Assembly (NCBI GenBank): GCA_963737905.1
Contig: CAVTUQ010000026.1
Coordinates: 64,001-128,000, forward strand
Reading direction: 5' to 3'
DNA from: an uncultured delta proteobacterium
Lineage (GTDB): Bacteria; Desulfobacterota; Binatia; UBA9968
Length of the DNA stretch: 64,000 nt
The notes under the pieces were generated by a model. It did not search any database. It was not told the origin of the DNA and saw only the letters and a program-made list of their open reading frames with translations. The translations under genes were made by a program, and so were the position numbers. Positions within the stretch are counted from its first letter, which is position 1. The number at the start of each line of letters is the position of its first letter. Of the stretch, positions 3,001-27,883 are shown one piece after another.

Positions 3001-4099
3001 GAGTCGCGAACCGGTCCAGGTCCCCAATATCCTGGAGGAGCGCGGCTACGCGCCGCGCATGCGCCAGTTGCTGGAACGTTTCGGTTTCCGCGCCAGCCTG
3101 GCCGTTCCGTTGCTGCGCGAAGACCACATCATCGGTAGTCTAGTGGTAAGGCGAAAATCGATTGGCGACTTTCGCCCCGAAGTTATCGAGCTTTTGAAAA
3201 CCTTTGCCACCCAGTCTGTGTTAGCGATCCAAAACGCCCGGCTGTTCCGCGAGATCGAGGAAAAGAGCCGCCAGATCGAAGCGGCCAACCGGCACAAGTC
3301 GGAATTTCTCGCCAACATGTCCCATGAGCTCCGCACGCCGCTCAATGCCATCATCGGCTTCTCGGAAGTCTTGCGGGAGAGACTGTTTGGCGAGCTGAAC
3401 GAAAAACAAGCCGAGTACACCGACGACATTCTCACCTCCGGTCGCCATCTGTTGTCGCTAATCAATGAGATTCTCGATCTCTCCAAGGTCGAGGCCGGGC
3501 GCATGGAGCTGGAGCTGGCAACGTTCGATCTGCCGTTGGCAATCGACAATGCGCGCACCTTCGTGCGCGAGCGGGCCACCAGGCACGGCATCAATCTCGA
3601 TGTCTACGTTGACGAGCGGCTTGGAGACTTTGTCGGCGACGAGCGGAAGATCAAGCAGATACTTCTCAATCTGCTTTCCAACGCCGTGAAGTTCACGCCG
3701 GAGGGAGGACGGATCGGAATCAGCGCCAGGCAGACTGACGGCGCAGTGGAAATCTCGGTCAGTGACACGGGCATCGGCATCGCCGCGGAGGACCAGGCAA
3801 GAATTTTCGAGGAATTTCGCCAGGTGGGATCCGACTATGCGCACAAAAGCGAGGGGACAGGACTCGGGTTAACCTTGGCCAAGAAATTTGTCGAACTGCA
3901 TGGTGGCAGGATCTGGGTGGAGAGCGAAGTAGGGAAGGGATCGACATTTACCTTCACATTGCCGATCAACCCTCACCCATTCCCTCTCCCAGAGGGCGAG
4001 GGCTTAGAAAGTAAGGGAGGAAAATTCGAAACACGAAATCCGAAATTCGAAACAATTTCAAATGAGCAAGCAAAAACACAATGTTCCAATCAATCCTGA
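1..4099 (+). CDS. Multi-GAF sensor histidine kinase (>=7 GAF domains, HisKA, HATPase); 5' end outside window, broken by frameshifts at ~210 and ~2300-2620
   Basis: Repeated GAF units ending [19 protein letters not shown] and starting [18 protein letters not shown] in ORFs 214-2400 and 2621-4099; H-box [14 protein letters not shown]-box [11 protein letters not shown] boxes DTGIGI and GTGLGL; no hydrophobic segment visible. Confidence 0.9.
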
Positions 4100-4190
4100 T
4101 TCAGATTCGGCGCTTTTGGATTTTCCGAGTTTGAGATTTATTTGGCTGCGGTTTGTTTCGGATTTCAATATTCGGATTTCGGATTTTAAT
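3970..4190. repeat. REP-like hairpin (CCCTCACCC...GGGCGAGGG) followed by inverted heptamer arrays (AAATTCG/AAATCCG ... CGGATTT)
   Basis: ccctcacccattccctctcccagagggcgaggg at ~3970-4002; aaattcgaaacacgaaatccgaaattcgaaac at ~4022-4053 mirrored by gtttcggatttcaatattcggatttcggatttt at ~4155-4187. Confidence 0.7.
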
Positions 4191-4280
4191 CGTGTTGAGC
4201 TTGGCGCTTGGCGGGAGATATATCCGGGTTTGGAAAGGAGGATGTCGCGCAAAGATGATACTTACAGAAGGGAGATTGAT

Positions 4281-4691
4281 ATGAAAATCGACGGCGGTTG
4301 CCATTGCGGCAATATTACCTATACCGCGGAAATCGATCCCGAAAAAGTCGGTATATGCCATTGCACGGACTGCCAGACACTTTCCGGGACAGCATTTCGC
4401 ACGAGTGTGCGCGCAAACAACGACGCGTTTCAGTTGAAGGGCGGTCCGCCCAAGATCTATGTCAAGACCGCTGAAAGCGGCGCCAAACGCGCCCAGGCAT
4501 TCTGTCCGGAGTGTGGCACGCCGATCTATTCGGCGGCGGTGAAAGACCCGGATACTTTCAATATCCGCGTCGGGACCATACGGCAGCGGGCCGAGCTGAG
4601 GCCCAGGTCGCAAGGCTGGTGCCGGTCCGCACGAGACTGGGTGAATGATCTGCAATCGATAAAGCAGTTTGATAAACAGCGGGGCGGTTAA
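4281..4691 (+). CDS. GFA/CENP-V family Zn-binding protein
   Basis: GGCHCG, CHCTDCQ and FCPECGTP motifs; RBS GGGAG before ATG 4281. Confidence 0.9.
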   Translation: MKIDGGCHCGNITYTAEIDPEKVGICHCTDCQTLSGTAFRTSVRANNDAFQLKGGPPKIYVKTAESGAKRAQAFCPECGTPIYSAAVKDPDTFNIRVGTIRQRAELRPRSQGWCRSARDWVNDLQSIKQFDKQRGG

Positions 4692-4907
4692 GGCAGTGGG
4701 TTGCGCTGGCCTACTTGGCCACTCTCGCTAAGCCAAAATCCGTTCGGAAATTAGCCCGATCGACCGTTTACACTTCAGGCGAAAGCCTGGGCTGTGAAGG
4801 GCACGGTTTGGCGTTAGGGATGGTGATCAAGTGCTCTACGGTAGGGCGTTTTCGAGGTTGACACCTGAAATCCGTGCTCATAGACTTTGACTACTGAGGG
4901 AACTGAT

Positions 4908-5189
4908 ATGCGTTCACGTGCAGGGTCTCGACGTTTACAAAAGAAAAATGGGCGAGTAGAGAAAACGATACGAGAGTGGGAAAGATCATATCCGGATATG
5001 TGGATTCTCTTAGAGGTGACGGAACAAGTCAATAATGAACCGGTGCGCGGAAAAGTGATCGCGACTGCCGGTGATCCGGAGGAGTTTCAAACGGAATGGA
5101 AAAGACACCGGGGAAAAGGTGTCCTCACAATGCTGACCTACGGTCCTCCGCTCGAGCCTGGTCCGGCGGTGGTGGCCAGTGCCACGTAG
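4908..5189 (+). CDS. Small hypothetical protein (DUF5678-like), overlapping a downstream aspartyl protease
   Basis: YPDMWILL...GKVIATAGDPEE pattern; overlaps next ORF. Confidence 0.55.
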   Translation: MRSRAGSRRLQKKNGRVEKTIREWERSYPDMWILLEVTEQVNNEPVRGKVIATAGDPEEFQTEWKRHRGKGVLTMLTYGPPLEPGPAVVASAT

Positions 5190-5556
5190 CTGGGCATCAT
5201 TTCCTCCTAATTCTCTGCCCGTTATAGCCCTTCGGATCAGTGATGTCATCATCAGGGCTTTGGTCGACACTGGCGCTTCTCAAAGCTTGATTGATCCCCG
5301 TTTAGTCAAACAACTCAGCCTTCAAGAAGACGGTCGCGGTTGGATTGTCGGCGTTGGCACAAAACCGCTCCAGGTCTCACTCGTATCGATTGAAGGTGCG
5401 GCAATCGGTCGTTGTATTCTGAATTCTTTCAGAGCGGGAACATTGGATTTGACCAATCTGAGGATCGGTGTCCAACTGATTCTCGGTATCAATTCCTTTG
5501 AAGGGTACCGTCTGCAATTCGATCTAGCAAAGGGGCGGCTCCATCTTTTGTCATAA
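5179..5556 (+). CDS. Retropepsin-like (clan AA) single-domain aspartyl protease
   Basis: ALVDTGAS catalytic motif and C-terminal LILG motif. Confidence 0.85.
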   Translation: MPRSWASFPPNSLPVIALRISDVIIRALVDTGASQSLIDPRLVKQLSLQEDGRGWIVGVGTKPLQVSLVSIEGAAIGRCILNSFRAGTLDLTNLRIGVQLILGINSFEGYRLQFDLAKGRLHLLS

Positions 5557-5752
5557 GGATAGACTGAGCGTTCGGACACACTTGTGAGGCTCAACATGGA
5601 AACTTGCCCAGTGGCGGGCGTCAGTTCTTCCTTGCGTACTCTTGATGAGATGAGATAGAAGTTCCCAAACGTGTGTTTAACACTACAACACTTTTGATTC
5701 TGGTGACGTAACCGCCATTGGTTGAATTGAGATGAAGGATAAAGGCGGAAGG

Positions 5753-6712
5753 ATGAAGGTCCGGATCGGCATCAGCCTGGGCGACGGTGCGCTGGACACC
5801 GCGTCGCCGGATAGTGTTCTCGAGTTTATCGACGATTGCGAGCGCTGGGACATCGACTCGGTGTGGGTCAGTGACCGCATCGCTGCCCCCAGGCCGACCC
5901 TCGAGCCCGTTGTATTTATGGCTTACCTGGCATCGCGCATGCGCAACATGAAGTTCGGCACGAGCGCCCTTGTGTTGCCGACCCGCCATCCCGTGGTGCT
6001 TGCCAAGCAGCTTGCTACGCTCGATTTTCTCTGCAAGGGAAGGCTTCTGCTTGTCGTGGGCATCGGCGGCGATGATTCACGCGACTTCGAGGCGACGGGG
6101 GTGCGCAAAGAAGAACGCGGCAAACGGGGCGATGAAGCGATCGTGCTGATGAAGAAACTGTGGACCGAGGAGCAAGTGACCTTCGAGGGACAGTTCTATT
6201 CGGTTCGTGATCTAACCTTGCTTCCACGGCCTTATCAAACAGGCGGACCGCCGGTTTGGGTCGGTGGCCGTAGCAAGGCCGCCTTTCGACGCGCAGGGCG
6301 TCTCGCCGACGGTTGGCTCGTTTCGTCCGTGACCCCGAGCGAAGTCGCGGCGGGCATCGAAGCGATCCGCAATCACGCCACGGAGGTTGGGCGGGAGATT
6401 CCTGAAGATCATTACGGAGTTTTAGTTCCTTATGTTTTCGCAAAGGATACCGAAGACGCTTTAAAAATTGCCGGCCCTTCCATTCGCAGGCGGCAAGACA
6501 TCCTTCCGTCTGATTACTCTGCCCTGGGCACACCGGACCAGGTGCGGAGAAAAATCCAAGAGTATATCGCCGCCGGCGCTACCAAGTTTGTCATGCGTCC
6601 CTACGGTCCAAAGGAAACGCATAGAGAACAAGTGCGAATTCTTGCCCAGGAAGTAATTCCGCCATTGCAGACGCCTTTCAGTCCGGCTGAGCGCGGCGAA
6701 CGATTAGGTTAA
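5753..6712 (+). CDS. LLM-class (luciferase-like) flavin-dependent oxidoreductase
   Basis: SVWVSDR, LPTRHPVVLAKQLATLD, PPVWVGG, RAGRLADGW motifs. Confidence 0.9.
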   Translation: MKVRIGISLGDGALDTASPDSVLEFIDDCERWDIDSVWVSDRIAAPRPTLEPVVFMAYLASRMRNMKFGTSALVLPTRHPVVLAKQLATLDFLCKGRLLLVVGIGGDDSRDFEATGVRKEERGKRGDEAIVLMKKLWTEEQVTFEGQFYSVRDLTLLPRPYQTGGPPVWVGGRSKAAFRRAGRLADGWLVSSVTPSEVAAGIEAIRNHATEVGREIPEDHYGVLVPYVFAKDTEDALKIAGPSIRRRQDILPSDYSALGTPDQVRRKIQEYIAAGATKFVMRPYGPKETHREQVRILAQEVIPPLQTPFSPAERGERLG

Positions 6713-6831
6713 TACAGGAACCACAAGAGGCTATGTTCGAGGTCGCGGCAGCCCATCTTCTTGTACAGCACGCAACATGCGAACGAATGTTGCGGTTTGC
6801 ACGAGCGAAAAATACGCAGGAGGATAAGAGC

Positions 6832-7233
6832 ATGAAAATCGAAAGAGTAACCAGCCCTCATGTCGCGGAACCGCCGCCGGGTCGATGGTCCAATGCTTTG
6901 CGGGTCGGTGACATGCTGTTTGTCTCCGGCATGGTTTCCCGCGCCGGCGACGGCAGGACCATCGAAGGCCGCGATGAATACGAGCAGGCGAAAGTGATTT
7001 TCGGCAAGATCCGCGGCCTCGTGGAGGCGGCGGGAGGCGCCATGGCGGACATCGTAAAGGTGACCATTTATGTCGTCAACATCAAGAACAATACCGAAGT
7101 GTGGCGCGCGCGTCAGGAGTTCTTTAGCGGTGATTTTCCATGCTCTACGCTGGTCGAAGTCAGGAGCCTTGCGACCCCCGAGATTCTCGTCGAGATCGAA
7201 GCGATCGCTTGTATCGGTGCCGGCAAACGATAA
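6832..7233 (+). CDS. RidA/YjgF/UK114 family protein
   Basis: LFVSG, IVKVTIY, FPCSTLVEV, LVEIEA motifs; AGGAGG RBS. Confidence 0.9.
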   Translation: MKIERVTSPHVAEPPPGRWSNALRVGDMLFVSGMVSRAGDGRTIEGRDEYEQAKVIFGKIRGLVEAAGGAMADIVKVTIYVVNIKNNTEVWRARQEFFSGDFPCSTLVEVRSLATPEILVEIEAIACIGAGKR

Positions 7234-7305
7234 GGCAGGTGACATCTCCAGCGACAGAATAATAGAACTCAGCGCATCCCACCGACATCCCTCGTCTGGA
7301 GGAAT

Positions 7306-8349
7306 ATGATGAAAATTGATTTTTTCAGAGGTTTGGTGCCGAAACGGAAAAAATCATGTTACCCACTGCCGGTTGTGCTCTGGTTCTTGCTGATGCTCTC
7401 TCTTCCTGGCACTTCGAGCGCCGCGGATAAACTCGTTTTCGGCTGGAGTGCCATCGCGGGTTCCCAGGCGGTTCCGTGGATTACGAAAGAGGCGGGGCTT
7501 TTCGAGAAGCATGGGCTGGACACGACGCTCATCTATCTGGACGGAGGATCCAGAGCGATTCAGGTCTTGCTTTCGGGTGAGGTGCCTATCGTTCAAGGCG
7601 GCGGCAACTCGCCGGTCGCGGCGCGCTTGCGCGGCGGTGATGTGACCTTGATCGCGGGTATCGTGAATGTCCTTGCCTACAGTTTGATCGTCCATCCGGA
7701 GATCAAACGGCCGGAGGATCTCCGCGGCAAGAAATTGGCGATTAGCCGCTATGGCTCCAATTCGGACTATGCGACGCGCAAAATTTTGATCAAGTGGGGA
7801 CTTAAGCCGGACACGGATGTTGCCATCATCCAAATTCCCGGAGGTCAACCCACAAGACTTGCCGCGGTACAGAACGGACAGGTCGCCGGGCTCGTTGCGC
7901 AGCCGCCGGTGACGGTGCTTGCGCGCAAGGCGCGTCTTAACAGTCTTGCGGAGCCCTCGGACTTTGGCAGCGCCTATACGAACACACCGATCGCTGCCAC
8001 CGGTGCCTTCATTAAAGACCGGAGGGATACTGTCCGGCGATTCACGCGAGCTTTGGTTGAGGGAATCTTCGTCTATAAGACTCAAAAAGAGTTCAGCAAG
8101 CGCGTCATCGCGAAATACATGCGGGTAAACGATCCCGACGCCGTTGAGGATAGCTACCAGTTTTTCTCTCCCGTTGTCCCGTCCAAACCCTACCCGCCAC
8201 TGGATGGGATCAAGGAAGTTCTTTTGGAGTTGGGAGAGAAGGATCCCAAAGCCCGCGGCGCAAAGCCTGAAGATTTTGCGGACTCGAGCTTTGTGAAGGA
8301 GCTGGATGATAATGGTTTCATCGACGGGCTTTACAAAAGCAAGCGATGA
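7306..8349 (+). CDS. NMT1/SsuA-like ABC substrate-binding protein
   Basis: Signal peptide; GLFEKHGLD and DLRGKKLAISRYGS motifs. Confidence 0.85.
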   Translation: MMKIDFFRGLVPKRKKSCYPLPVVLWFLLMLSLPGTSSAADKLVFGWSAIAGSQAVPWITKEAGLFEKHGLDTTLIYLDGGSRAIQVLLSGEVPIVQGGGNSPVAARLRGGDVTLIAGIVNVLAYSLIVHPEIKRPEDLRGKKLAISRYGSNSDYATRKILIKWGLKPDTDVAIIQIPGGQPTRLAAVQNGQVAGLVAQPPVTVLARKARLNSLAEPSDFGSAYTNTPIAATGAFIKDRRDTVRRFTRALVEGIFVYKTQKEFSKRVIAKYMRVNDPDAVEDSYQFFSPVVPSKPYPPLDGIKEVLLELGEKDPKARGAKPEDFADSSFVKELDDNGFIDGLYKSKR

Positions 8350-17159: not shown

Positions 17160-17408
17160 ATGCGTGTCTCGGTCACCATAGAAGATGATGTTGCCGCGTC
17201 GCTCAAACGCCTTGCGAAAGCGCTCGGCTTAAGGTTCAAGACCTTAGTCAATCTGGTGCTCAGAGAAGGTATTAAGAGCATGACCGGGCCGGTGAAAAAG
17301 CGAAAAACTTTTCAGACGCGTTCGGTCGACCTTGGGCCATGCAGGATTGCCAATGTGGATAACCTTGCGAAAGTCCTTGCAAGAACCGAGGGTGAATCGT
17401 TTAGATGA
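17160..17408 (+). CDS. VapB/CopG-like RHH antitoxin
   Basis: MRVSVTIEDDV...FKTLVNLVLREG; overlaps a PIN remnant. Confidence 0.75.
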   Translation: MRVSVTIEDDVAASLKRLAKALGLRFKTLVNLVLREGIKSMTGPVKKRKTFQTRSVDLGPCRIANVDNLAKVLARTEGESFR

Positions 17409-18330: not shown

Positions 18331-18950
18331 CCACGCACAAAGTAACCGAATACGTCGAGTTGTCGATCTTCCCCCACAGCAGTAAGTGAATCGCTCCAGC
18401 AGCAGCTCCGAGATATCAAAAAGACCTCGGATGACCTTTCCCCAAGTCGTCGCCCCCCGGACGATCTCATAAACGCGATAGTCTCGGGTTGTGCTGCTGT
18501 GGTAAATGAAGCGCTCAAATCTTCCGAGGAAGGAGAACATCTAATGGAAAAACTTTCTCGGTATTGATCTGCCTAAGAGGGTATCACAGCTAGCTGCGCA
18601 GAGAGAAATCAAACCCGCGTCGCAGCTTCGGTTCGCCAAGGATACCGTCACGGTCGAGAAGGGCTTAAAGCAATTACCGCAGGGAAGCGATTACATTTGA
18701 GGCGACAGCTCGTGGTGGTGGTTTGCCAAGATTTTCTGTCACCGGTCCTTGTTTGCCTCTTACCCTAAACCCAACTCTACTTGGAGAGAAGCGGATGATT
18801 GACCTGAAAGCTCCGCCTAACAGGAGGGTTTTTCTCCCATTCCTCGAAGGAGACATTAAACCCATGGGTATCGGTGCCCTGCACGCAAGTGATTCTACCG
18901 CGCGATCAGATTTGCCACTACCACTTATCTCACATAGGATAATATCAACC

Positions 18951-19412
18951 GTGAAGCTTTACCTCGATACTTCGGTTCTGGGCGCTGTGTTCGACACAAA
19001 ACCTATTGGCCGCCGTGAAACGACTCAGCTATTTTTTGAAACCGTACGAAGAAGTAGCGACACTTTGTATATCTCGGATTTGGTGCTGGACGAAGTTGAT
19101 CGGGCTCCCGATCGTGTACGTTTTTCGCTGATGACGCTTGTGCGACAAATTCGGCCGCTGGTGCTTTCCGAATCTCGCGACAGCTTGTCGTTGGCCGACG
19201 AGTACGTCGCGGCACGCGTGATTCCGGTAAGCTCGCGCGACGACGCGAGGCATGTCGCGATCGCTACTCTTGCCGGGAACGACGCGCTGGTCTCGTGGAA
19301 TTTTAGGCATTTGGTGAATCTAAGAAGAAAACGACTGGTTCATTCGGTGAACATTCGACTCGGATACCCACTGATCGAACTGGTTTCTCCCGAGGAGGTT
19401 CTTTATGAGTAA
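18951..19412 (+). CDS. PIN-domain (VapC-like) ribonuclease
   Basis: LYLDTSV, VLDEV, DDARHVA, SWNFRHLVN motifs. Confidence 0.85.
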   Translation: MKLYLDTSVLGAVFDTKPIGRRETTQLFFETVRRSSDTLYISDLVLDEVDRAPDRVRFSLMTLVRQIRPLVLSESRDSLSLADEYVAARVIPVSSRDDARHVAIATLAGNDALVSWNFRHLVNLRRKRLVHSVNIRLGYPLIELVSPEEVLYE

Positions 19413-19665: not shown

Positions 19666-20652
19666 TCATTTGAGCACCCTATCGGCTCTCGCCAGCACAT
19701 TCGGCGGGATCGTCAGGCCGATCTGCTTGGCTGCCTTCAGATTAATGATGAACTCAAACTTTTTCGGCTGCTCCACCGGCAGATCGGCCGGTTTGGCGCC
19801 TTTCAGAATCTTGTCGACATACGTGGCAGTGCGCCGGTCCAAGTCGGTAAGGTTCACACCGTAGAACATAAGCCCCCCGGCCTCTACATATGATGAAAAT
19901 GGGTATATCACCGGAAGCCGGCTCGTTACCGCAAGGTCTACAATCTCTTGTCTGCGATCACCGACAACGGAGCTCGCCACTATCATAAGGACTGCTTGAG
20001 CGCGCCTCTTGACTGCAGCTCGGAATGCGCTCTCAATGTCCCTTGAAACCAGTATGTCAACGTATTGAAGCTTCACCGCCAATGCTCCGGCGGCGAGTTC
20101 CACTTCTTTTAACATTTGTGCAGTTGCCCGGCTGCGTCGAAGTCCCGAAGACGGCCGCGCGGGAGAGGCCAGGAAGGATCTCCTTCAGAAGCTCCAGTTG
20201 TTTTCCGCTTATCTCCGGGGCGAGGGTAGATAAGCCAGTGATGTTCCCGCCAGGCCGCGCAAGACTGGCGACGAAACCGTTCCCTACAGGATCGTTAACC
20301 TGCGTCATGACAATGGGAATCGTGGAAGTTGCGTCCTTGGTAACACGAGTCGGTACCGGACCAGCCGGTGACGATGACATCCACTTTGAGACGCGACTAG
20401 CTCGGCAGCGAGCGCAGGAAGACGATCGAGTTTTCCCTCTGCAGATCGCCACTCAATGACAATGGTTTTCCCCTCCACATATCCCAATTCGCCGAGACCC
20501 CGGCGCAATGCCTCGCTGCGGACCGGGTCAAGGAAGCGACTCATTAGGTAACCTATCCGCGGGATTTTCGTCGGCTGCTGCTGCGCCTCGGCGAGCTGAA
20601 TGGTTGTTAAAATTAGAACCGGGAGCGCATAGACAAGGATCTTTGCCTTCAT
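19666..20652 (-). CDS. ABC_sub_bind (PF04392-type) substrate-binding protein, frameshifted twice
   Basis: Signal ending AEAQQ; DPVGNGFVASLARPGGNITG; PADLPVEQPKKFEFIINLKAAKQIG spread over three frames. Confidence 0.85.
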
Positions 20653-21016
20653 AGGCTCCTCCGAAACTAGTCAGGCTAAAACCAGTCTGGTTGGTAGAAG
20701 TATAGGTGCTTTCCTTATTTCATCACCTGGTATGATCTGTCAATGTTCGCAGAATATAGCCTTGACTCCATCGGCTTAGTGCCGTTAATAGGTGCGCCAC
20801 CACATGAAGCTCAAAGACATGAGGAAGGCGCCGATACACCCCCGCTTGGCACTCTGGATGCCCCCGCGCTGGACCGGGATAGGTTCCGCCGCCGTGCACG
20901 GCGCCTTCTGAAATAGCATGTGTCTTGTTCTTGCGCTCGTCCGCGACATCATAATAAATCTCTCCGCGTTCGCTCCCGTGTCGCAGGAGGCCGTTCATGA
21001 AGCTTGATAACTCACC

Positions 21017-21052
21017 GTAGAGTTTTCACTACCGGGGTAGAGGAAAAACTAC
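21017..21052. promoter_or_regulatory. Tandem palindromic GTAG-N8-CTAC sites, candidate enhancer (UAS) for a sigma54 activator
   Basis: GTAG-agttttca-CTAC (21017-21032) and GTAG-aggaaaaa-CTAC (21037-21052), 20 bp apart, ~100-130 bp upstream of the -24 box. Confidence 0.6.
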
Positions 21053-21148
21053 CCTTTGGGTGTATCGCCGTTCGCCTTAAGATCCCACCGCTCGAAATTC
21101 TTCCGTTCACTCAGCACCTTACTCTCATCGAGCCACGTGCGCTGACCG

Positions 21149-21163
21149 TGGCACGGCGGTTGC
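21149..21163 (+). promoter_or_regulatory. sigma54 (-24/-12) promoter
   Basis: TGGCACGGCGGTTGC matches TGGCACG-N4-TTGC, ~77 bp before ATG 21240. Confidence 0.75.
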
Positions 21164-21239
21164 GCTACGAAAATCGGGTCGGGCGTAAATCCAAACTGAT
21201 TCATCTGAAACATGACAAATAACACGGAGGTTCAAAGCT

Positions 21240-22571
21240 ATGAAGTCACGATGGATTGGTCTAGTAATTTTCCTATTATTTACAGGTATCTTCTTTTCAT
21301 TGGCCCCTCAAGTCTGTCCCGGATTTAGGCGGTTCCTCGGCATGGGGAGACGACGACGATAAGCTACCGTTTCCAAAGAATGCGACCGTTACAACTCTGA
21401 TCACGACACCACGCCGCTTGCATCGGTTGACCGGAGACAATCACCGTAATTTATACACCGTTGGTTTAGGCACGCCTCCCTGCCCGGTTTGGCAAATCAA
21501 CCTCCACAAACCCAGCCTAATTCCGGTCGGATTCATTGTACCCGCTGCCGGAGACTGCGGCTTCAATGGAATTGCGTTTAACCGAGAACGGCAATCTGTT
21601 TGTGACCGACGCAGGGTAGGAATTCACGTCCAATTCACGACCGGGACCATTTACACGTTTAAACCAAGCGCCAAGAATCCGCCATCGCCACCATTTTCGC
21701 CTCAGGCGTTCCGGGAGCTAAGCGCATCGCCTTCGATAAGAAGGGAAACCTCTGGGTTAGTGACGGAGTGACGGGTCAGGGAAGAGTTTGGAAGATTGCA
21801 CTGGGGGTGGTGTGTGTGAAGACGAAGTGAATCCTTATCAGGGCTGTGAAGAAGTATTTCGTATCCAGCCGATGGCAAACGAGGTTAATCTCGATGCTAA
21901 TGGAGTCGGCGGTGTAGGGCGTGACATCCGTACGCTGCCGCAAGGGACGATAACCGTGACACCAACATCGCGTAATGCCGCCAACACTGAGGGCTCTGCG
22001 CCGTTCGTGGCCACCGGCCTCGCTTTCGACAAGGACGGAGATAACTGTTCATTGCTGATCAGGCGCGAGAAGCGATCTGGAAGGCGAAATTCGACCGCAA
22101 CGGCTATCTAAAAAGCAAAACAGGTTGCGATACTACCTTTACACCCAACACTCTCTGTCTCGACAACGTCTTTGTCGCGCATCCCTATCTTGAAGGCGCT
22201 GACGGAATCGCATTGGATCGAGATGGAAATATATGGGTCGTTGCCGCTGAACGCCAGGCCATCGTGTTTGTGACCAAGAATGGGAAAGTAATTGAAGTCT
22301 TCCGCAATCCCGTGAACGCGGCTGGCTTGAGAAATTCGGCCGATCCGGCAGTAGGAAACAACCACATTCTTGAACATCCCACGGGTCTCTTCCTTACCGG
22401 AAAAGCCCTCTGCTCGGCCCAGAACGACCATGGGGCAAGGGATAATGTCACTCGACGCTTGGGCGAGATCAACGCCAGCGCAGCCGAAGATGGGCCAATT
22501 CCTTTAGGTAAGATATCTTGCATGGACCAGGAGTTAAAAATTCCCGGTCTACGGTTTTACCCATCGACTAG
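21240..22571 (+). CDS. Secreted SMP-30/gluconolactonase-like beta-propeller, multiple frameshifts
   Basis: GGAGG RBS, signal peptide MKSRWIGLVIFLLF; blade motifs NGIAF, GLAFDKDG, EGADGIALDRDGNIWV across frames. Confidence 0.7.
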
Positions 22572-22992
22572 TGCTGTTTTCACCACGGGAGCCTCCTGGA
22601 ACAAAACCAGGATCGACGGCGTCTCTGATCCGCGAGGACGGAATCGAACATGGAGGTAAGATCGCCGCCGTGCAGACAATCTGTTCCTCAAGCCGGAGAA
22701 AAAATAGCTCCTCCCGCAGGAACGTAGCCAGGATTCTGTGTCGTTCGATCTGGGGTACGTTCCTGCGAGAACCGGGTCGGACCTGCGCAGAGTAAAAGTC
22801 CTTTGTGCGTCTAACCGGTTTCACTTTCTTGTATGCCACCAGGTGCGGCAATGGATAGAAGTAATGGTTTCCGGAGCGGTTGACAGCGAAGTTCAGGGTC
22901 GGATAGGTTCTAGAACCGATCCGATATCCTCCGTTTTCCAGTCTCCCCGAGCCAAGTGACGGTTCTCTTAGAATGGATTTAGGAGAACTCTG

Positions 22993-25082
22993 ATGGGATG
23001 GCTTAGCGGAGAAAAGAAAAGTGAGAATTCACGAGCTACTGAACTGAGCCAGCTCAAAGAAGAGTTGCGTGGCGTCTCTGAAAAACTCGAATCCCGCGAG
23101 AGCGAACTGGCCGAAGCCTTGGAGCAGCAGACCGCAACAAGTGAGATCTGCGCATGATCGCGGGAACGCCCACCGATATTCAAATAGTGCTCGACGCCGT
23201 GACCGAGAGTGTCGCTCGGCTTTGTAACGCTACAGTGGAATCCTTTGTGTGGGCGGATGAGGTGATTAGCAATGGTGAGTGGCCAGAGGTCTAGTGGAGC
23301 TCAGGGGAGGAAAAGCTGCGTAGTGGGACTTTTGCTCGGGTAGGTTATCTGGGCGCGGGAGACCCCGTCAGCGGGGGTTATCGCATCGAGGCGTTCCGCC
23401 AGGGACTAAAACAGCTCGGCTACATCGAGGGGAAAAATCTTATAATCGAGTATCGGTTCGCCGGGGCTAGGTTGGATCGGCTGCACGAGTTGGCGGAAGA
23501 CCTTGTCCGTCTCGAGGTCGACATTATCTTTGCGCGAGGTATGCCGGCGACCGACGCTGCTAAGAACGCGACGCAGACGATCCCGATCATCACAAGCAGT
23601 AGCGACCCGGTAGGGTCCGGGCTTGTCGCCAGCTTAGCGCAACCGGGTGGAAACATTACCGGGCTGACCAACCTTACCTCGGAGTTGGTCGGAAAACGGC
23701 TTGAGCTGCTCAAGGAGGTGATTCCTAAGCTATCCCACGTCGCCGTTCTTTGGACTCCAGGTCATCCTGCGGTTGGAGTTTGGAGAGAGGCCGAGGTTGC
23801 CGCTCAATCTCTGGGCGTGCAGCTCCAGGCCGCAGAGGTACGAGATCGAGACGATTTAGAGCCGGCTTTCGCAGCTATAAAAAGAGAACGTGCTGAGGCC
23901 CTGATCATGCTACGGAGCCCCATCGTTAATGACCTGACGAAAGGGATCGTCAATCTTGCGGCCAAGAGCCGGCTACCGGCCATCTACGATGATAAAAGAT
24001 TTCCGCAGCTTGGTGGCCTCATGAGTTATGGGGTCAATCTGGCTGATCTGGACCGGCGTGCGGCCACGTATATCGATAAGATTTTGAAAGGCGCCAAGCC
24101 CACAAACTTGCCCATCGAACAGCCGACGAAGTTCGAGCTGCGGATCAATCCCAGGACCGCCAAAGCCCTAGGGAGCAGAATAACGGAGACTCTGCGCGAG
24201 GCTTATAGCGGGTTGGAAAAACAGGTCGAAGATAGAACCCGCGAGCTTGCTGGTGCCAACGAGAAATTAAAGGAGTTGGATCGACTGAAATCGGACTTCG
24301 TCTCTCACGTCTCGCACGAGCTGAGGACGCCGCTCACGGCAATCAAAGGTGCCGTGGATCTGATACTACGCGAGGTCGCGGGACCGCTTACCGAGAAGCA
24401 AATTCATTATCTCACCCGCGTAAGATCGAATACGCAGCATCTGGCCGGTTTGATCAATGACTTGTTGGATCTCGCCAAGATCGAGTCGGGAAGAATCGAG
24501 GTTAAATCCAGTCGTGTTTCTCTCAGCGGTCTCGTGCATGAGGTGGCGGAGTCCTTGCGGCCCGTTGCGGCGGAGAAAGTCATTGCACTTGAAGCGATCA
24601 TTCGCGAACCGTCCATTCTAGTGTGGGCGGATCGGGATAAGATCAATCAAGTCCTGACGAACCTGATCGGCAATGCGATCAAGTTCACGCCTGTTCAGGG
24701 CAGGGTTACAGTGTCAGCGTCAAGAAATGGCGGAGAAAGCGTTCAGGTGTCTGTATCCGATACCGGTCCGGGAGTACCGGCGGACGAAAAAGAAAAGATT
24801 TTTGCTAAGTTTTACCGGATCGCCGAGGTGAATGGAGAGAATTCCAAAGGCACCGGTCTCGGTCTTGCGATCTCCAAAGCGCTTGTGGAGTTGCATGGCG
24901 GCAAGATTTGGGTGGAGTCTGAGGCGGGTGGCGGCAGCACGTTCTCGTTCACTCTGCCGTTATCAGGTCCGCAAAATTCCGGATGGTGTTCTGGATTGAC
25001 TGCTCGGAGAAGATTTAACAGAGAGCGAGTGCTAGTGGCAACGACAATGAAATCAAATACTTTACCACGAAGTGCTTCATGA
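22993..25082 (+). CDS. Histidine kinase with an ABC_sub_bind sensor domain (N-terminal coiled-coil/GAF-linker stub separated by a frameshift at ~23150 and TAG 23292)
   Basis: ORF 23472-25082: DPVGSGLVASLAQPGGNITG...PTKFELRINPRTAKALG joined in frame to [36 protein letters not shown]. Confidence 0.8.
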
Positions 25083-25264
25083 TCAGACGCCGCCGACAGA
25101 ACGTGAAGCTACAGGTCGTCAGCCGGCATGGTTAGCCGGCATCCAGGTCCACGTGGCTGACTCCGGAGAAATCTATGTGAACTGGATGGCCAACACGCGA
25201 TGCTGGTCGACAGAAACGAGTAGTTTAAGAACGATCGTGGCTACGCCTCGATTTGGAAATGAGG

Positions 25265-25341
25265 TGCGAAGAGCACGAAGTATAAGAAATTGAATGTAAA
25301 TATTTCCGTGTCCTTCGTGCGCTTCGTGCGCTTCGTGGTGA
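25265..25341. repeat. Palindromic 9-mer repeat element (CACGAAG/CTTCGTG)
   Basis: gcgaagagcacgaag ... cttcgtgcgcttcgtgcgcttcgtggtg. Confidence 0.65.
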
Positions 25342-25388
25342 CATGATATTTTTTTATTGATTCGACAATTTGGAATCGGCACCCAAAA

Positions 25389-26741
25389 ATGAAAACTCTT
25401 AGCGGGACCATACTTGTTGCGGATGACGATGCCGATATTCGCGACATTCTAAGTGAAACTCTGAATAGCCTTGGTTCCCGAGTGATCACGGCCGCCAATG
25501 GGCGCGAGTGTCTGGACAAGGTGGACAAGGAGGCGCCGGAACTGTTGCTCCTCGATATCGAGATGCCGGTTAAAAACGGACTCGAAGTGTTGAAAGAGTT
25601 ACGACAAAGAGGGCGTGACACGACAGCAATTATGATCACCGCCTACGGCACGATCGAGCGGGCCGTGCAGGCGATGCAAGAAGGTGCGTTTGATTTTATC
25701 ACCAAGCCCTTTGACCTTGACCATATTGCCATGGTCGTGGAAAAGGCGCTGGAGCGCGAACGGCTTAAGAGAGGCCTAGAACGCTTTACCGAGGAAGCTG
25801 GCGAGCGATATCGGTTAGTGGGCGGTGAGAGCCCGCAGATGCGAGAAGCGATCGAGACGGCTAAAAAGGCCGCCTCCAGCAGGTCGACGGTTTTGCTCCT
25901 TGGCGAAAGCGGCGCGGGGAAAGAAGTCTTCGCCCGGGCCATCCATAACTGGAGCGAAAGAAAGCATGAGCCGTTCATCGCGATTAATTGTGTAGGACTT
26001 TCCAAAGATCTTCTTGAAAGCGAGTTATTTGGCCATGAAAAAGGGGCCTTCACTGGCGCGCATCATTTTAAAAAGGGCAAGATGGAACTAGCCCATCGTG
26101 GAACCGTTTTTCTCGACGAGGTCGGGGACATTTCGGCGGAGTTGCAAACCAAGCTCCTCAGATTTCTTCAAGAGCGGGAGTTTGAGCGGGTCGGCGGCAC
26201 CCAGCCGATTCACGTGGATGTTCGGGTGATCGCAGCTACCAACCGTGACCTCTCGATCGCCATCAAAGAAGGACGATTCCGTGAGGACCTCTATTATCGT
26301 CTTAACGTCATTCCCATCTCGCTGCCGCCATTGAGAGAACGAAGAGAAGATATACCCGTTCTCGCGAGATATTTTTTGCGGCGGTTTGCCTTGGAAACGA
26401 AGAAAAACTTTACCGGGATCACAGCGGAGGCGGAGGCGAGGCTTGTAGCCTACGCATGGCCGGGCAACGTTCGTGAGCTGGCGAACGCGATTGAGCGAGC
26501 CGTCGTACTCGGCCAGGGCCCCGAGATTACTCTCGAAGATCTGTCGCCGCGTATCGCTTACTCGGAAGACGAAGGAACTTCCGACGGTTTGTCCTATCGC
26601 GGAGCCGTAGACGCTGCCCGAGCGAATGTCATCAGGCGAGCGCTGGCGACCACTCAGGGCAATCGAGCCGCCGCTGCAAGGATCCTCGGCCTGCACAAAA
26701 CCCACTTGCTAAATCTGATGAAGTCCCTCGGGATTGGTTGA
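25389..26741 (+). CDS. sigma54-dependent response regulator (NtrC/AtoC family)
   Basis: Receiver (ADDD, LDIEMP), GESGAGKE, GAFTGA, FREDLYYRL, Fis-type HTH. Confidence 0.95.
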   Translation: MKTLSGTILVADDDADIRDILSETLNSLGSRVITAANGRECLDKVDKEAPELLLLDIEMPVKNGLEVLKELRQRGRDTTAIMITAYGTIERAVQAMQEGAFDFITKPFDLDHIAMVVEKALERERLKRGLERFTEEAGERYRLVGGESPQMREAIETAKKAASSRSTVLLLGESGAGKEVFARAIHNWSERKHEPFIAINCVGLSKDLLESELFGHEKGAFTGAHHFKKGKMELAHRGTVFLDEVGDISAELQTKLLRFLQEREFERVGGTQPIHVDVRVIAATNRDLSIAIKEGRFREDLYYRLNVIPISLPPLRERREDIPVLARYFLRRFALETKKNFTGITAEAEARLVAYAWPGNVRELANAIERAVVLGQGPEITLEDLSPRIAYSEDEGTSDGLSYRGAVDAARANVIRRALATTQGNRAAAARILGLHKTHLLNLMKSLGIG

Positions 26742-27175: not shown

Positions 27176-27883
27176 ATGCCCAGCTCGTGGGAGAAAATAA
27201 AGGTCGATAACAGTCAGATGCCGCTTTATGTGAGTGTGCCGGCGAGCGGCGGGCCGGTGCCGGGCGTCGTCGTAGTGCACGGCCAGTCGGGTTTGGAAAG
27301 TTTTATCAAAGACACCACCCACATGCTGGCGCTTCAGGGATACGCTGCCGTTGCGCCGAATCTCTATCACCGCGATGGTACGGACTGCAAGGACGACAAT
27401 CCGACCCGCAAAGCGCGCTTGCGCGACACGACGATCATCAACGACATCAATGCTGCCATCGGGTTTCTCAAGAATCACCGGCAAGTCGACGGTGGACGGT
27501 TAGGCATCGTCGGCTTTTGCATGGGAGGGCGGTTAGTCTATCTCATGTCCGCTGCGAGCAAAGATCTCAAAGCCGGTGTGATGTTTTATGGCAGCGGCAC
27601 CATGGTGCCGTTTGGCGAAGGTCCGTCGCCGTTCGATCGCACGCGCGAGATCAACTGCCCGGTCCAGGGACACTTCGGCGCTGAGGATCAAAACCCATCC
27701 CCCGCAGACATGCGAAAGCTCGACGCGGAGCTTACGAAATGGGGCAAGGTCCACGAGTTTCACACCTACACTGGGGCGGCCCACGCCTTTGTGAATTCAG
27801 GTTCAAGCAACTACCGCCCCCGCGCCGCTGCCCTGTCGTGGCCGAAAGCGATGGCATTTTTTAGCAGGCATTTAGTGGGATGA
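27176..27883 (+). CDS. Dienelactone hydrolase family protein
   Basis: GFCMGG nucleophile elbow, GAAHAF. Confidence 0.9.
   Translation: MPSSWEKIKVDNSQMPLYVSVPASGGPVPGVVVVHGQSGLESFIKDTTHMLALQGYAAVAPNLYHRDGTDCKDDNPTRKARLRDTTIINDINAAIGFLKNHRQVDGGRLGIVGFCMGGRLVYLMSAASKDLKAGVMFYGSGTMVPFGEGPSPFDRTREINCPVQGHFGAEDQNPSPADMRKLDAELTKWGKVHEFHTYTGAAHAFVNSGSSNYRPRAAALSWPKAMAFFSRHLVG

Follow-up and report, generated by a model that had tools for sequence, protein, structure and literature searches.

How does a substrate-binding domain of the ABC_sub_bind family (PF04392) come to be joined to a histidine kinase that has no membrane segment, and is the domain still in use there? The question is raised by a 64,000-nucleotide stretch of contig CAVTUQ010000026.1 (assembly GCA_963737905.1, positions 64,001 to 128,000 of the forward strand) from an uncultured delta proteobacterium of the Binatia. 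We call this whole stretch the window, and coordinates given without a locus name refer to it. One of its genes encodes such a fused kinase and is followed by a gene for an NtrC-type response regulator. We propose, with a probability of about 0.6, that the two form a two-component system whose kinase was stripped of its membrane sensor by a deletion and would now act as a soluble sensor in the cytoplasm. Comparison with related loci establishes the architecture of the kinase, its origin and conservation, and its synteny with the regulator, a sigma54-type promoter and a secreted beta-propeller gene.

The kinase gene is composed of the following parts.

23295-25082, plus strand: stop-to-stop frame of the fused kinase, 595-residue product (Pfam run on 23295-25079)
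23303-23318, plus strand: Shine-Dalgarno sequence AGGGGAGG and a CTG at the position of the relatives' ATG, from comparison of the start region with loci L089 and L178
23316-24173, plus strand: binding half of the kinase (PF04392, residues 1-286), which has no signal peptide and lacks the ~16 C-terminal residues of the family (Pfam)
24174-24287, plus strand: junction and signalling helix, consisting of the last ~9 residues of HAMP helix AS2 (S/N-R-I/M-T-E-N/T-L-R-E-A-Y) and then the S-helix into the dimerisation and histidine phosphotransfer (DHp) region
24288-25082, plus strand: kinase core, with HisKA at 24288-24491 and HATPase_c at 24630-24965 (Pfam)

The open reading frame (ORF) listed originally, 23472-25082, takes an internal TTG as its start and lacks 52 residues at the front of the binding domain. 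In the frame 23295-25082, Pfam places ABC_sub_bind at residues 33-300 (E 5.6e-45; 154.3 bits against a cut-off of 25.9), covering profile positions 19-285 of 293, HisKA at residues 332-399 (73.4 bits) and HATPase_c at residues 446-557 (114.8 bits). The binding domain stops at ...TAKALG, and the junction lies between nucleotides 24173 and 24174. The translation contains an H-box (SHELRTPL), an N-box (NLIGNAIKF) and the motifs DTGPG and GTGLGL. With HisKA and HATPase_c, the H, N, G1 and G2 boxes and a fold match to HK853, the protein belongs to the HisKA class of kinases.

Hydropathy bears on where this protein resides. The window protein reaches a highest mean Kyte-Doolittle value over 19 residues of 1.05, and none of 34 relatives of the same architecture exceeds 1.61; the second membrane helix of dCache kinases, which served as a control, scores 2.1-2.4. 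An export signal was not found in the fused proteins with complete N-termini, whose N-terminal hydropathy over 10 residues is at most 1.47, versus 1.8-2.8 for the signal peptides of the free paralogues. Having neither a signal peptide nor a membrane helix, the fused kinase is probably a soluble cytoplasmic protein. A histidine kinase core needs ATP, and for this reason the whole fused protein, binding domain included, would be expected in the cytoplasm. The initial annotation had described a PF04392 domain cut after ...TAKALG and joined to HisKA and HATPase without a signal peptide or transmembrane segment; Pfam and hydropathy agree with that description, once the start of the ORF is corrected.

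The binding domain also retains several features of its family. It keeps the motifs DPVG and GGNITG and matches three chains in the PDB by sequence, 3LKV (E 1.3e-30), 3LFT and 6HNI (E range 1.3e-30 to 5.7e-18). An AlphaFold2 model of the fused kinase has a mean predicted local distance difference test score (pLDDT) of 82.6 overall and about 90 over the binding domain. Foldseek aligns the model to 3LKV (TM score 0.84), 3LFT (0.82), the closed form 6HNI (0.81) and HK853 (0.74), indicating that the fused domain has the two-lobed fold of periplasmic binding proteins. Residues 279-353 are modelled as one helix, which begins as the final helix of the binding domain, crosses the junction and leads into the phospho-accepting helix. 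Alignments of the fused domain to free binding proteins and PDB chains end 15-17 residues short of their C-termini.

Is the junction genuine? The initial annotation had cautioned that the consensus is error-prone and might be chimeric, and had proposed a search for membrane-less proteins with the same domains and for reads across the junction. Among 120 relatives listed, at least 34 metagenome protein clusters have the PF04392 and HisKA (plus HATPase) architecture. They are 70-99% identical to the window protein, come from several sources and in several cases bear source names of Candidatus Binatia. HAMP and dCache are absent from the Pfam lists of all 34, which is not the refuting case named in the initial annotation, homologues that always carry transmembrane or HAMP segments at this site. 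In 16 of 16 fused sequences read, the junction is ...TAKA(L/F)G and then x-R/A-x-x-x-N/T/K-L-x-x-x-Y. Matches that cross the junction (query residues 1-201, 83-86% identity) are present in the window's genome (G000) and in G209, G228 and G260, the last an unpublished genome on which the fourth case rests. A contig of 255 nucleotides from a soil short-read run, possibly the window's own sample, spans 24045-24298 and crosses 24173/24174 with 11 differences and no gap. An assembly chimera or misjoin at the domain junction, for which the error-prone consensus might speak, is ruled out by the relatives' junctions, the three further family genomes and the bridging contig, and its probability is close to nil.

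Searches further afield returned less. In scans of metagenomes and genomes with a piece covering the junction, L089 was the only high-identity match spanning it among the matches listed (L181 duplicates L089 and adds no further case). A class-wide genome search with the whole protein gave no full-length match in 200 other genomes, with six candidates scored per genome; this blank is uninformative, because G209 later proved to carry the fusion. One candidate for a fused kinase, L123 (39% over residues 1-188), proved to be a free binding protein. A profile search (alignment A3, 1.84 billion representatives) found no PF04392-kinase fusion by Pfam in 19 of the best 150 matches; these 150 are mostly double or hybrid kinases and free binding proteins, and are uninformative on distant fusions.

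The origin of the fusion can be read from locus L010, where the gene order is GAF kinase, SBP1, SBP2, dCache-HAMP kinase, NtrC-type regulator, SBP1 and SBP2 being free PF04392 proteins. The following blastn alignments relate the window to this locus, besides one for the upstream remnant that is given further below.

23334-24166 and L010 4420-5255, 78% nucleotide identity: SBP2, from 87 nucleotides after its start to 58 nucleotides before its stop
24179-24998 and L010 6606-7423, 87% nucleotide identity: dCache kinase from about residue 375
25381-26693 and L010 7572-8881, 84% nucleotide identity: regulator
19728-20588 (minus strand) and L010 4209-3352, 89% nucleotide identity: SBP1

Free binding proteins end in ...TAKAL(E/G)(L/V)KIPAHLLMEADxVIE-stop. 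At the matching site, the dCache kinases read ...EEFN(K/R)MTENLREAYSxLEKKVE... and the fused proteins read ...TAKALG(N/S)R(M/I)TE(N/T)LxEAYSxLEKKVE.... Because of these three sets of sequences, we conclude that the fused gene is SBP2 shortened at both ends, having lost the signal peptide and the final 16 residues, and that it continues into the kinase from the last ~9 residues of HAMP helix AS2. The fused form lacks about 1.35 kb, which comprises the tail of SBP2, the spacer, the dCache domain with both membrane helices, and most of HAMP. The longer N-termini of some relatives (MRxxGxRxxAGAMLLQxxKVARIGYL) resemble, by eye, the signal peptide MRKKVNRLAVAVMLLTLSFSAEAQQPKKVPRIG of L090 minus 8-9 residues.

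The unfused and fused states are found at the same locus in related genomes. In G246 (L177), the sequence TGGCACGACGGTTGC is followed by an intact 434-residue SGL/NHL propeller gene, a 182-residue ORF, a gene for a free 325-residue PF04392 protein, and then kinase and regulator. The G246 kinase is a 648-residue dCache-HAMP protein and the regulator is 81% identical to that of the window. In G209 (L178), a divergent SBP1-type gene is followed by GGTAG-N8-CTACC, TGGCATATCTGTTGC, an intact 448-residue propeller frame, the fused kinase, a small ORF and the regulator; the fused kinase starts with ATG (MRSRTLARIGYL...). Judged by gene order and content, the G209 block is the window's block in intact form. 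The synteny of the fusion with the NtrC-type and propeller genes, which the initial annotation had asked to have tested, is therefore preserved in G209.

The order binding protein(s), dCache-HAMP kinase, NtrC-type regulator occurs in seven loci: L010, L011, L090, L026, L111, L177 and L179. The kinase of L111 has two extra GAF domains. L179 is contig C40 of the window's own genome, which has a second, unfused module there (3319-7979) consisting of a 339-residue PF04392 protein, a 632-residue dCache-HAMP kinase and a 447-residue NtrC-type regulator, with exact sigma54 motifs just upstream on both strands (7769 minus, 7979 plus). In L091 the regulator is paired with a GAF kinase. In L110 (613-13382) an NtrC-type regulator, 60% identical to the window's, lies beside 11 tandem PF04392 genes on one strand.

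For one pair of fused genes, those of the window and L089, the ratio of nonsynonymous to synonymous substitution rates (dN/dS) comes to 0.24 (dS 0.44) over the binding half and 0.13 (dS 0.87) over the kinase half; for the free SBP2 orthologues of L010 and L011 it is 0.26. These ratios indicate purifying selection on the binding half. In a set made up of the window protein and 27 full-length relatives (378 pairs), pairwise identities average 79% for the binding half and 83% for the kinase half. In two fused proteins, P0029 and P0031, residues 1-240 of the binding half are closer to SBP1 than to the window's domain, and the last ~45 residues and the junction are window-like. This mosaic suggests that the binding module was exchanged with a paralogue after the fusion.

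In trees of the kinase core (quick trees only), fused and dCache kinases are intermingled, with 6-7 label changes, 2 of them forced by well-supported branches. Recombination between fused and unfused genes is a hint rather than a finding, because the approximately unbiased test does not reject a single fused clade (p 0.104, for a group named after seeing the tree). Over 23316-24995, the dS values between the window and L089 are uneven, 0.44 in the binding half versus 0.87 in the kinase half, and saturated in the regulator. The kinase half of the window protein is 94% identical to the dCache kinase P0037 and at most 90% identical to the other fused proteins except P0004. The uneven dS and the similarity to P0037 hint at recombination within the fused gene.

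What might the kinase control? The genes and sites around it are these.

25389-26741, plus strand: NtrC-type response regulator, Response_reg + Sigma54_activat + AAA_lid_14 + HTH_8 (Pfam)
21149-21163, plus strand: sigma54-type promoter TGGCACGGCGGTTGC, -24 GG and -12 GC, pattern TGGCAC-N5-TTGC
21029-21054, no strand assigned: candidate activator-binding site, CTACC-GG-GGTAG then N8-CTACC(C), with GGGTAG-N8-CTACCC at 21035-21054; ~95-120 nucleotides upstream of the -24 element
21240-22659, plus strand: secreted SGL/NHL-type beta-propeller gene, SGL (PF08450) match in the last piece, at least five frames in the consensus
19666-20652, minus strand: free PF04392 binding protein of the SBP1 type with signal peptide MKAKILVYALPVLILTTIQLAEAQQ, in three frames (19666-20115, 20057-20452 and 20305-20652), PF04392 on two pieces
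22866-23294, plus strand: remnant comprising a conserved upstream region and the first ~100 codons of a coiled-coil/GAF kinase, with ATG at 22993, a deletion of one nucleotide near 23145 and an in-frame TAG at 23292-23294

The regulator contains the GAFTGA motif and the Walker A sequence GESGAGKE and is an NtrC-type activator. Orthologues that are 60-88% identical follow a fused or a dCache kinase in 10 loci. Its best NCBIfam matches are AtoC and NtrC; because all matches are below their cut-offs (AtoC 482 versus 714 bits), it is not the equivalog of any named system. The promoter TGGCACGGCGGTTGC is the sole exact match to TGGCAC-N5-TTGC in the window (0.10 expected; at least one match in 9 of 100 shuffles) and lies 77 nucleotides before ATG 21240 of a gene whose product has a hydrophobic N-terminus. 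A relaxed pattern allowing two mismatches gave 22 matches in the window versus 26 expected and was of no use. L011 and L090 retain the GG-N10-GC core, which also precedes the propeller orthologues of G246 and G209, and rpoN is present in the window's genome. With the consensus, its conservation in orthologous loci and rpoN, we regard the site as a predicted sigma54 promoter. A scan of 20600-23400 for sigma70 promoters and terminators gave nothing above chance.

Conservation extends upstream of the promoter. Region 21010-21175 is conserved in L011 and L090 and before the propeller genes of G209 (84% over 162 nucleotides) and G246. Within it, L011 and L090 match the window at every column of the repeat, and GGTAG-N8-CTACC also lies upstream of the G209 propeller. 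The combination of repeat and promoter occurs once in the whole genome, in the window. No inverted repeat of 10 or more nucleotides was found at 20950-21250; the arms of 5-6 nucleotides were read by eye and rest on conservation only. Propeller orthologues are intact at 434-448 residues, with SGL and NHL, in 25 of 60 other family genomes (including the unpublished G208 and G231), linkage having been checked only at the window, G246 and G209 loci. The regulator following the kinase, the secreted propeller gene with a consensus sigma54 promoter and the divergent paralogue with a signal peptide had all been pointed out in the initial annotation and are recovered here, the propeller gene broken over at least five frames and the paralogue over three. 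Selection, fold, synteny and the conserved upstream inverted repeat suggest that the fused domain may bind a small ligand inside the cell and that the regulator may act on the propeller promoter.

Based on these observations, we suggest the following course of events. The ancestral unit would have comprised a sigma54 promoter, a cargo gene, one or two secreted PF04392 proteins, a histidine kinase with two transmembrane helices flanking dCache and followed by HAMP, and an NtrC-type activator. The free binding protein may then have signalled by docking on the dCache domain. A deletion of ~1.35 kb fused the second of the binding-protein genes onto the kinase, with its breakpoint where HAMP helix AS2 ends, and the signal peptide was lost, yielding a presumably soluble cytoplasmic kinase whose two-lobed binding domain is continuous, by one helix, with the phospho-accepting helix. 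Closure of the domain on a small ligand in the cytoplasm would be transmitted down this helix and switch between kinase and phosphatase activity. Once phosphorylated, the regulator would bind the GGTAG-N8-CTACC repeat and open the sigma54 promoter that lies before the gene of the secreted SGL/NHL propeller. Signal transfer through a rigid helical link has been proposed for Venus-flytrap kinases such as BvgS, and the model of the fused kinase would allow the same mode.

A computed test lends the docking step weak support. SBP2 placed on the dCache domain of L010 scored 0.50 (runs 0.50, 0.03 and 0.54) versus 0.00 for the best control, in a calculation in which the model possibly remembered solved complexes of binding proteins with Cache domains; of 157 solved complexes, 116 reach the docking mark, as do 2 of 215 mismatches, but only 18 of the 157 reach it with a score of 0.60 or below, and so do both mismatches. 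Contacts agreed to at least 76% and the pLDDT of the partners was no lower than 81, with our own alignments used.

Several points weigh against a ligand-responsive cytoplasmic kinase that drives the propeller gene. The family's last ~16 residues, after ...AKALG, are gone from the binding domain, and closure could suffer; AlphaFold2 confidence falls to 63-69 at residues 281-300; and the dN/dS of the fused gene comes from a single pair. The fusion is present in 4 of 90 family genomes (4 of 23 genera) and in 0 of 31 high-quality ones. The gene behind the conserved promoter varies, being a propeller in the window, G246 and G209, a cupin in L090 and an unknown ORF in L011, and 166 other loci compared gave no propeller match. 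The window's own copy reads CTG in place of the conserved ATG, translation from the nearest canonical start would cost it 52 residues, and the kinase frame extends ~28 codons beyond the relatives' stop. Some of these points would also fit a kinase that is blind to ligand: the fusion would have removed the periplasmic input, leaving the domain as a folded cap or dimer contact, the kinase constitutive or otherwise controlled and the regulon uncoupled from the outside signal. A domain that has lost its C-terminal residues, lies outside its original compartment, has no known ligand and is modelled with lower confidence at the junction is what such a kinase would show. However, the dN/dS of its binding half equals that of the free orthologues (0.24 and 0.26), DPVG and GGNITG are kept, and the SBP1-like domain that P0029 and P0031 carry on the same junction is hard to explain if the domain is a mere cap. 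We therefore regard a ligand-blind kinase as unlikely.

Another explanation concerns this genome in particular, in which the fused gene and its neighbours could be decaying pseudogenes. The CTG start lies at 23316-23318, where L089 and L178 have ATG, and follows the conserved Shine-Dalgarno sequence AGGGGAGG; because of this start and the C-terminal extension, expression of the window's own copy is uncertain. Upstream, the gene remnant carries both a frameshift and the TAG, and 22866-23235 is 79% identical in nucleotides (blastn) to L010 1656-2032, corresponding to the upstream region and first ~80 codons of a GAF-HisKA-HATPase gene; 23004-23302 is altogether absent from L089. The broken frames of the propeller and the paralogue fit decay as well. 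Against this, the kinase (1764 nucleotides from the CTG) and the regulator (1353 nucleotides) have no frame break, and the whole block is intact in G209. Short-read contigs of relatives differ from the window by indels of one nucleotide at 20121, 20366, 20394, 21309, 21681 and 21800 and of two nucleotides at 22556, the places where the frames of the paralogue and the propeller break; this evidence comes from Logan contigs of short-read runs, each holding at most 0.20 of the words. Partial hits make up 91 of 153 for the binding-domain profile across the window's genome. Because the breaks match indels in the relatives' contigs and fragmentation is genome-wide, an error-prone consensus fits. Decay of this copy is, in our judgement, quite improbable, and the soluble cytoplasmic sensor remains the preferred reading.

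At the end of the kinase (24975-25082), relatives stop at ...PQNSG and the window reads on as WCSGLTARRRF...; because a TGA lies in another frame at about 24996, an indel of one nucleotide is likely here. The spacer between kinase and regulator (25000-25388) is ~390 nucleotides long versus 19 in L089 and contains a triple direct repeat CTTCGTGCG and a T-run. In two soil runs the summed depth over the bin 25143-25383 is very high (217 and 162), as would be seen for a widespread repeated element.

How does this system compare with those already described? Sensor kinases with Cache-like domains that are stimulated by binding proteins, such as LuxP/LuxQ, HptA/HptS, ChvE/VirA and CBP/ChiS, are well known for 13 other binding-protein families (PMC8050422). 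As in the LuxP/LuxQ-type systems, the unfused relatives in the seven loci have a secreted binding-protein gene directly before the dCache kinase gene and no transporter genes. Unlike in those systems, the binding protein is a PF04392 member; the term 'ABC_sub' is absent from the text of PMC8050422. A further difference is that the window kinase is fused and has lost Cache, both membrane helices and most of HAMP, so that sensing would move into the cytoplasm. In BvgS and EvgS, the binding domains are periplasmic, belong to another binding-protein class and are joined via a membrane helix. The window protein resembles these kinases in having a bilobed binding-protein fold covalently joined by a helix to a histidine kinase, and differs in having no membrane segment. 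BvgS/EvgS-type kinases with Venus-flytrap (periplasmic-binding-protein) domains are treated in PMC4352136.

Clusters with PF04392, HisKA and HATPase_c are also present in the ESM Atlas, at 648-656 residues and commonest in Bacillota. Compared by Pfam content and length only, these have the same three families as the window protein, are ~90 residues longer and come from another phylum; because of them, a PF04392-kinase fusion as such is not new. Solved PF04392 members bind L-Trp, L-Tyr and L-Phe, according to PMC10443332 (Table 1). The fused domain shares its sequence family and fold (TM 0.81-0.84) with 3LKV, 3LFT and 6HNI (CD0873), which are binders of aromatic amino acids. Those proteins, however, are secreted or lipid-anchored transporter partners with a complete C-terminus, and identities of 22-28% say little on the ligand here. 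Binding-protein folds serve as cytoplasmic sensors in LacI/GalR, in LysR effector domains and in AmiC. These are transcription factors or an antiterminator partner of other families, not histidine kinases. With NtrB/NtrC and AtoS/AtoC the system shares a HisKA kinase, an activator of REC-AAA+-HTH architecture and a sigma54 promoter with an upstream repeat, but its regulator scores below the equivalog cut-offs of NCBIfam. A literature search at title and abstract level, not covering subscription journals, found no paper on a cytoplasmic PF04392 kinase. New here are a soluble PF04392 kinase whose origin can be traced, the survival of the unfused and fused states at a single locus, and the link between an orphan binding-protein family and dCache kinases.

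Does the fusion say anything about the family at large? PF04392 is among the most expanded gene families in uncultured soil lineages, with no known role. The window's genome has 127 PF04392 matches versus 9 matches to the permease family PF02653, none of the latter on the window's contig (C26). A HisKA-type kinase core is found no more than 2.5 kb away from eight of its 50 binding-protein arrays, compared with a mean of 2.6 for random placements, 3 of 1000 of which reached 8. The largest arrays have no HisKA-type core within 2.5 kb, and NtrC-like genes are not enriched near arrays (4 of 50; 235 of 1000 random placements were as high). The proposal in the initial annotation that many orphan ABC_sub_bind proteins act in signalling thus holds for a minority of arrays and does not extend to the largest. 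Ancestral and derived states at the same locus in related genomes lead to the hypothesis that at least some PF04392 proteins feed two-component systems. More speculatively, and with rather more doubt than conviction, the fusion may be a natural 'Rosetta stone': the expanded orphan PF04392 proteins of soil bacteria would be co-sensors of dCache kinases, one deletion would turn such a pair into a one-piece cytoplasmic sensor, gene conversion with free paralogues would re-tune its module, and both forms would persist at the same locus. The locus offers a simple test system, with a soluble kinase, a regulator, a defined promoter and free paralogues for ligand screens. It is also a clean example of a sensor-module swap in kinases, with the breakpoint at the end of a HAMP helix. 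Many of the proteins P0035, P0036 and P0121-P0206, which are 40-56% identical to the window's domain, are ~600-680 residues long with PF04392 only, apparently two binding domains in tandem.

Some neighbouring features complete the description of the locus. Between the divergent paralogue and the promoter region, a 91-residue ORF (20723-20998, minus strand) has no Pfam match. Just after the regulator, at 27176-27883, lies a dienelactone hydrolase gene (PF01738) that is 82% identical to one preceding the promoter region in L011; because its position differs between the window and L011, the block has been rearranged between loci. The ORF between fused kinase and regulator in G209 (L178, about 7014-7466, minus strand) has 151 residues with the sequence …DGGQHA…RFWNHDV…, which we take to recall the DUF559 or Vsr-like endonuclease family. 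Upstream in the window are an arylsulfotransferase-type propeller fragment (PF05935, 16386-17117), a small ORF with a ribbon-helix-helix-like start (17160-17408) and a 229-residue ORF (18723-19412). The C-terminal half of the last is presumably PIN-like, and together with the small ORF it may form a toxin-antitoxin pair.

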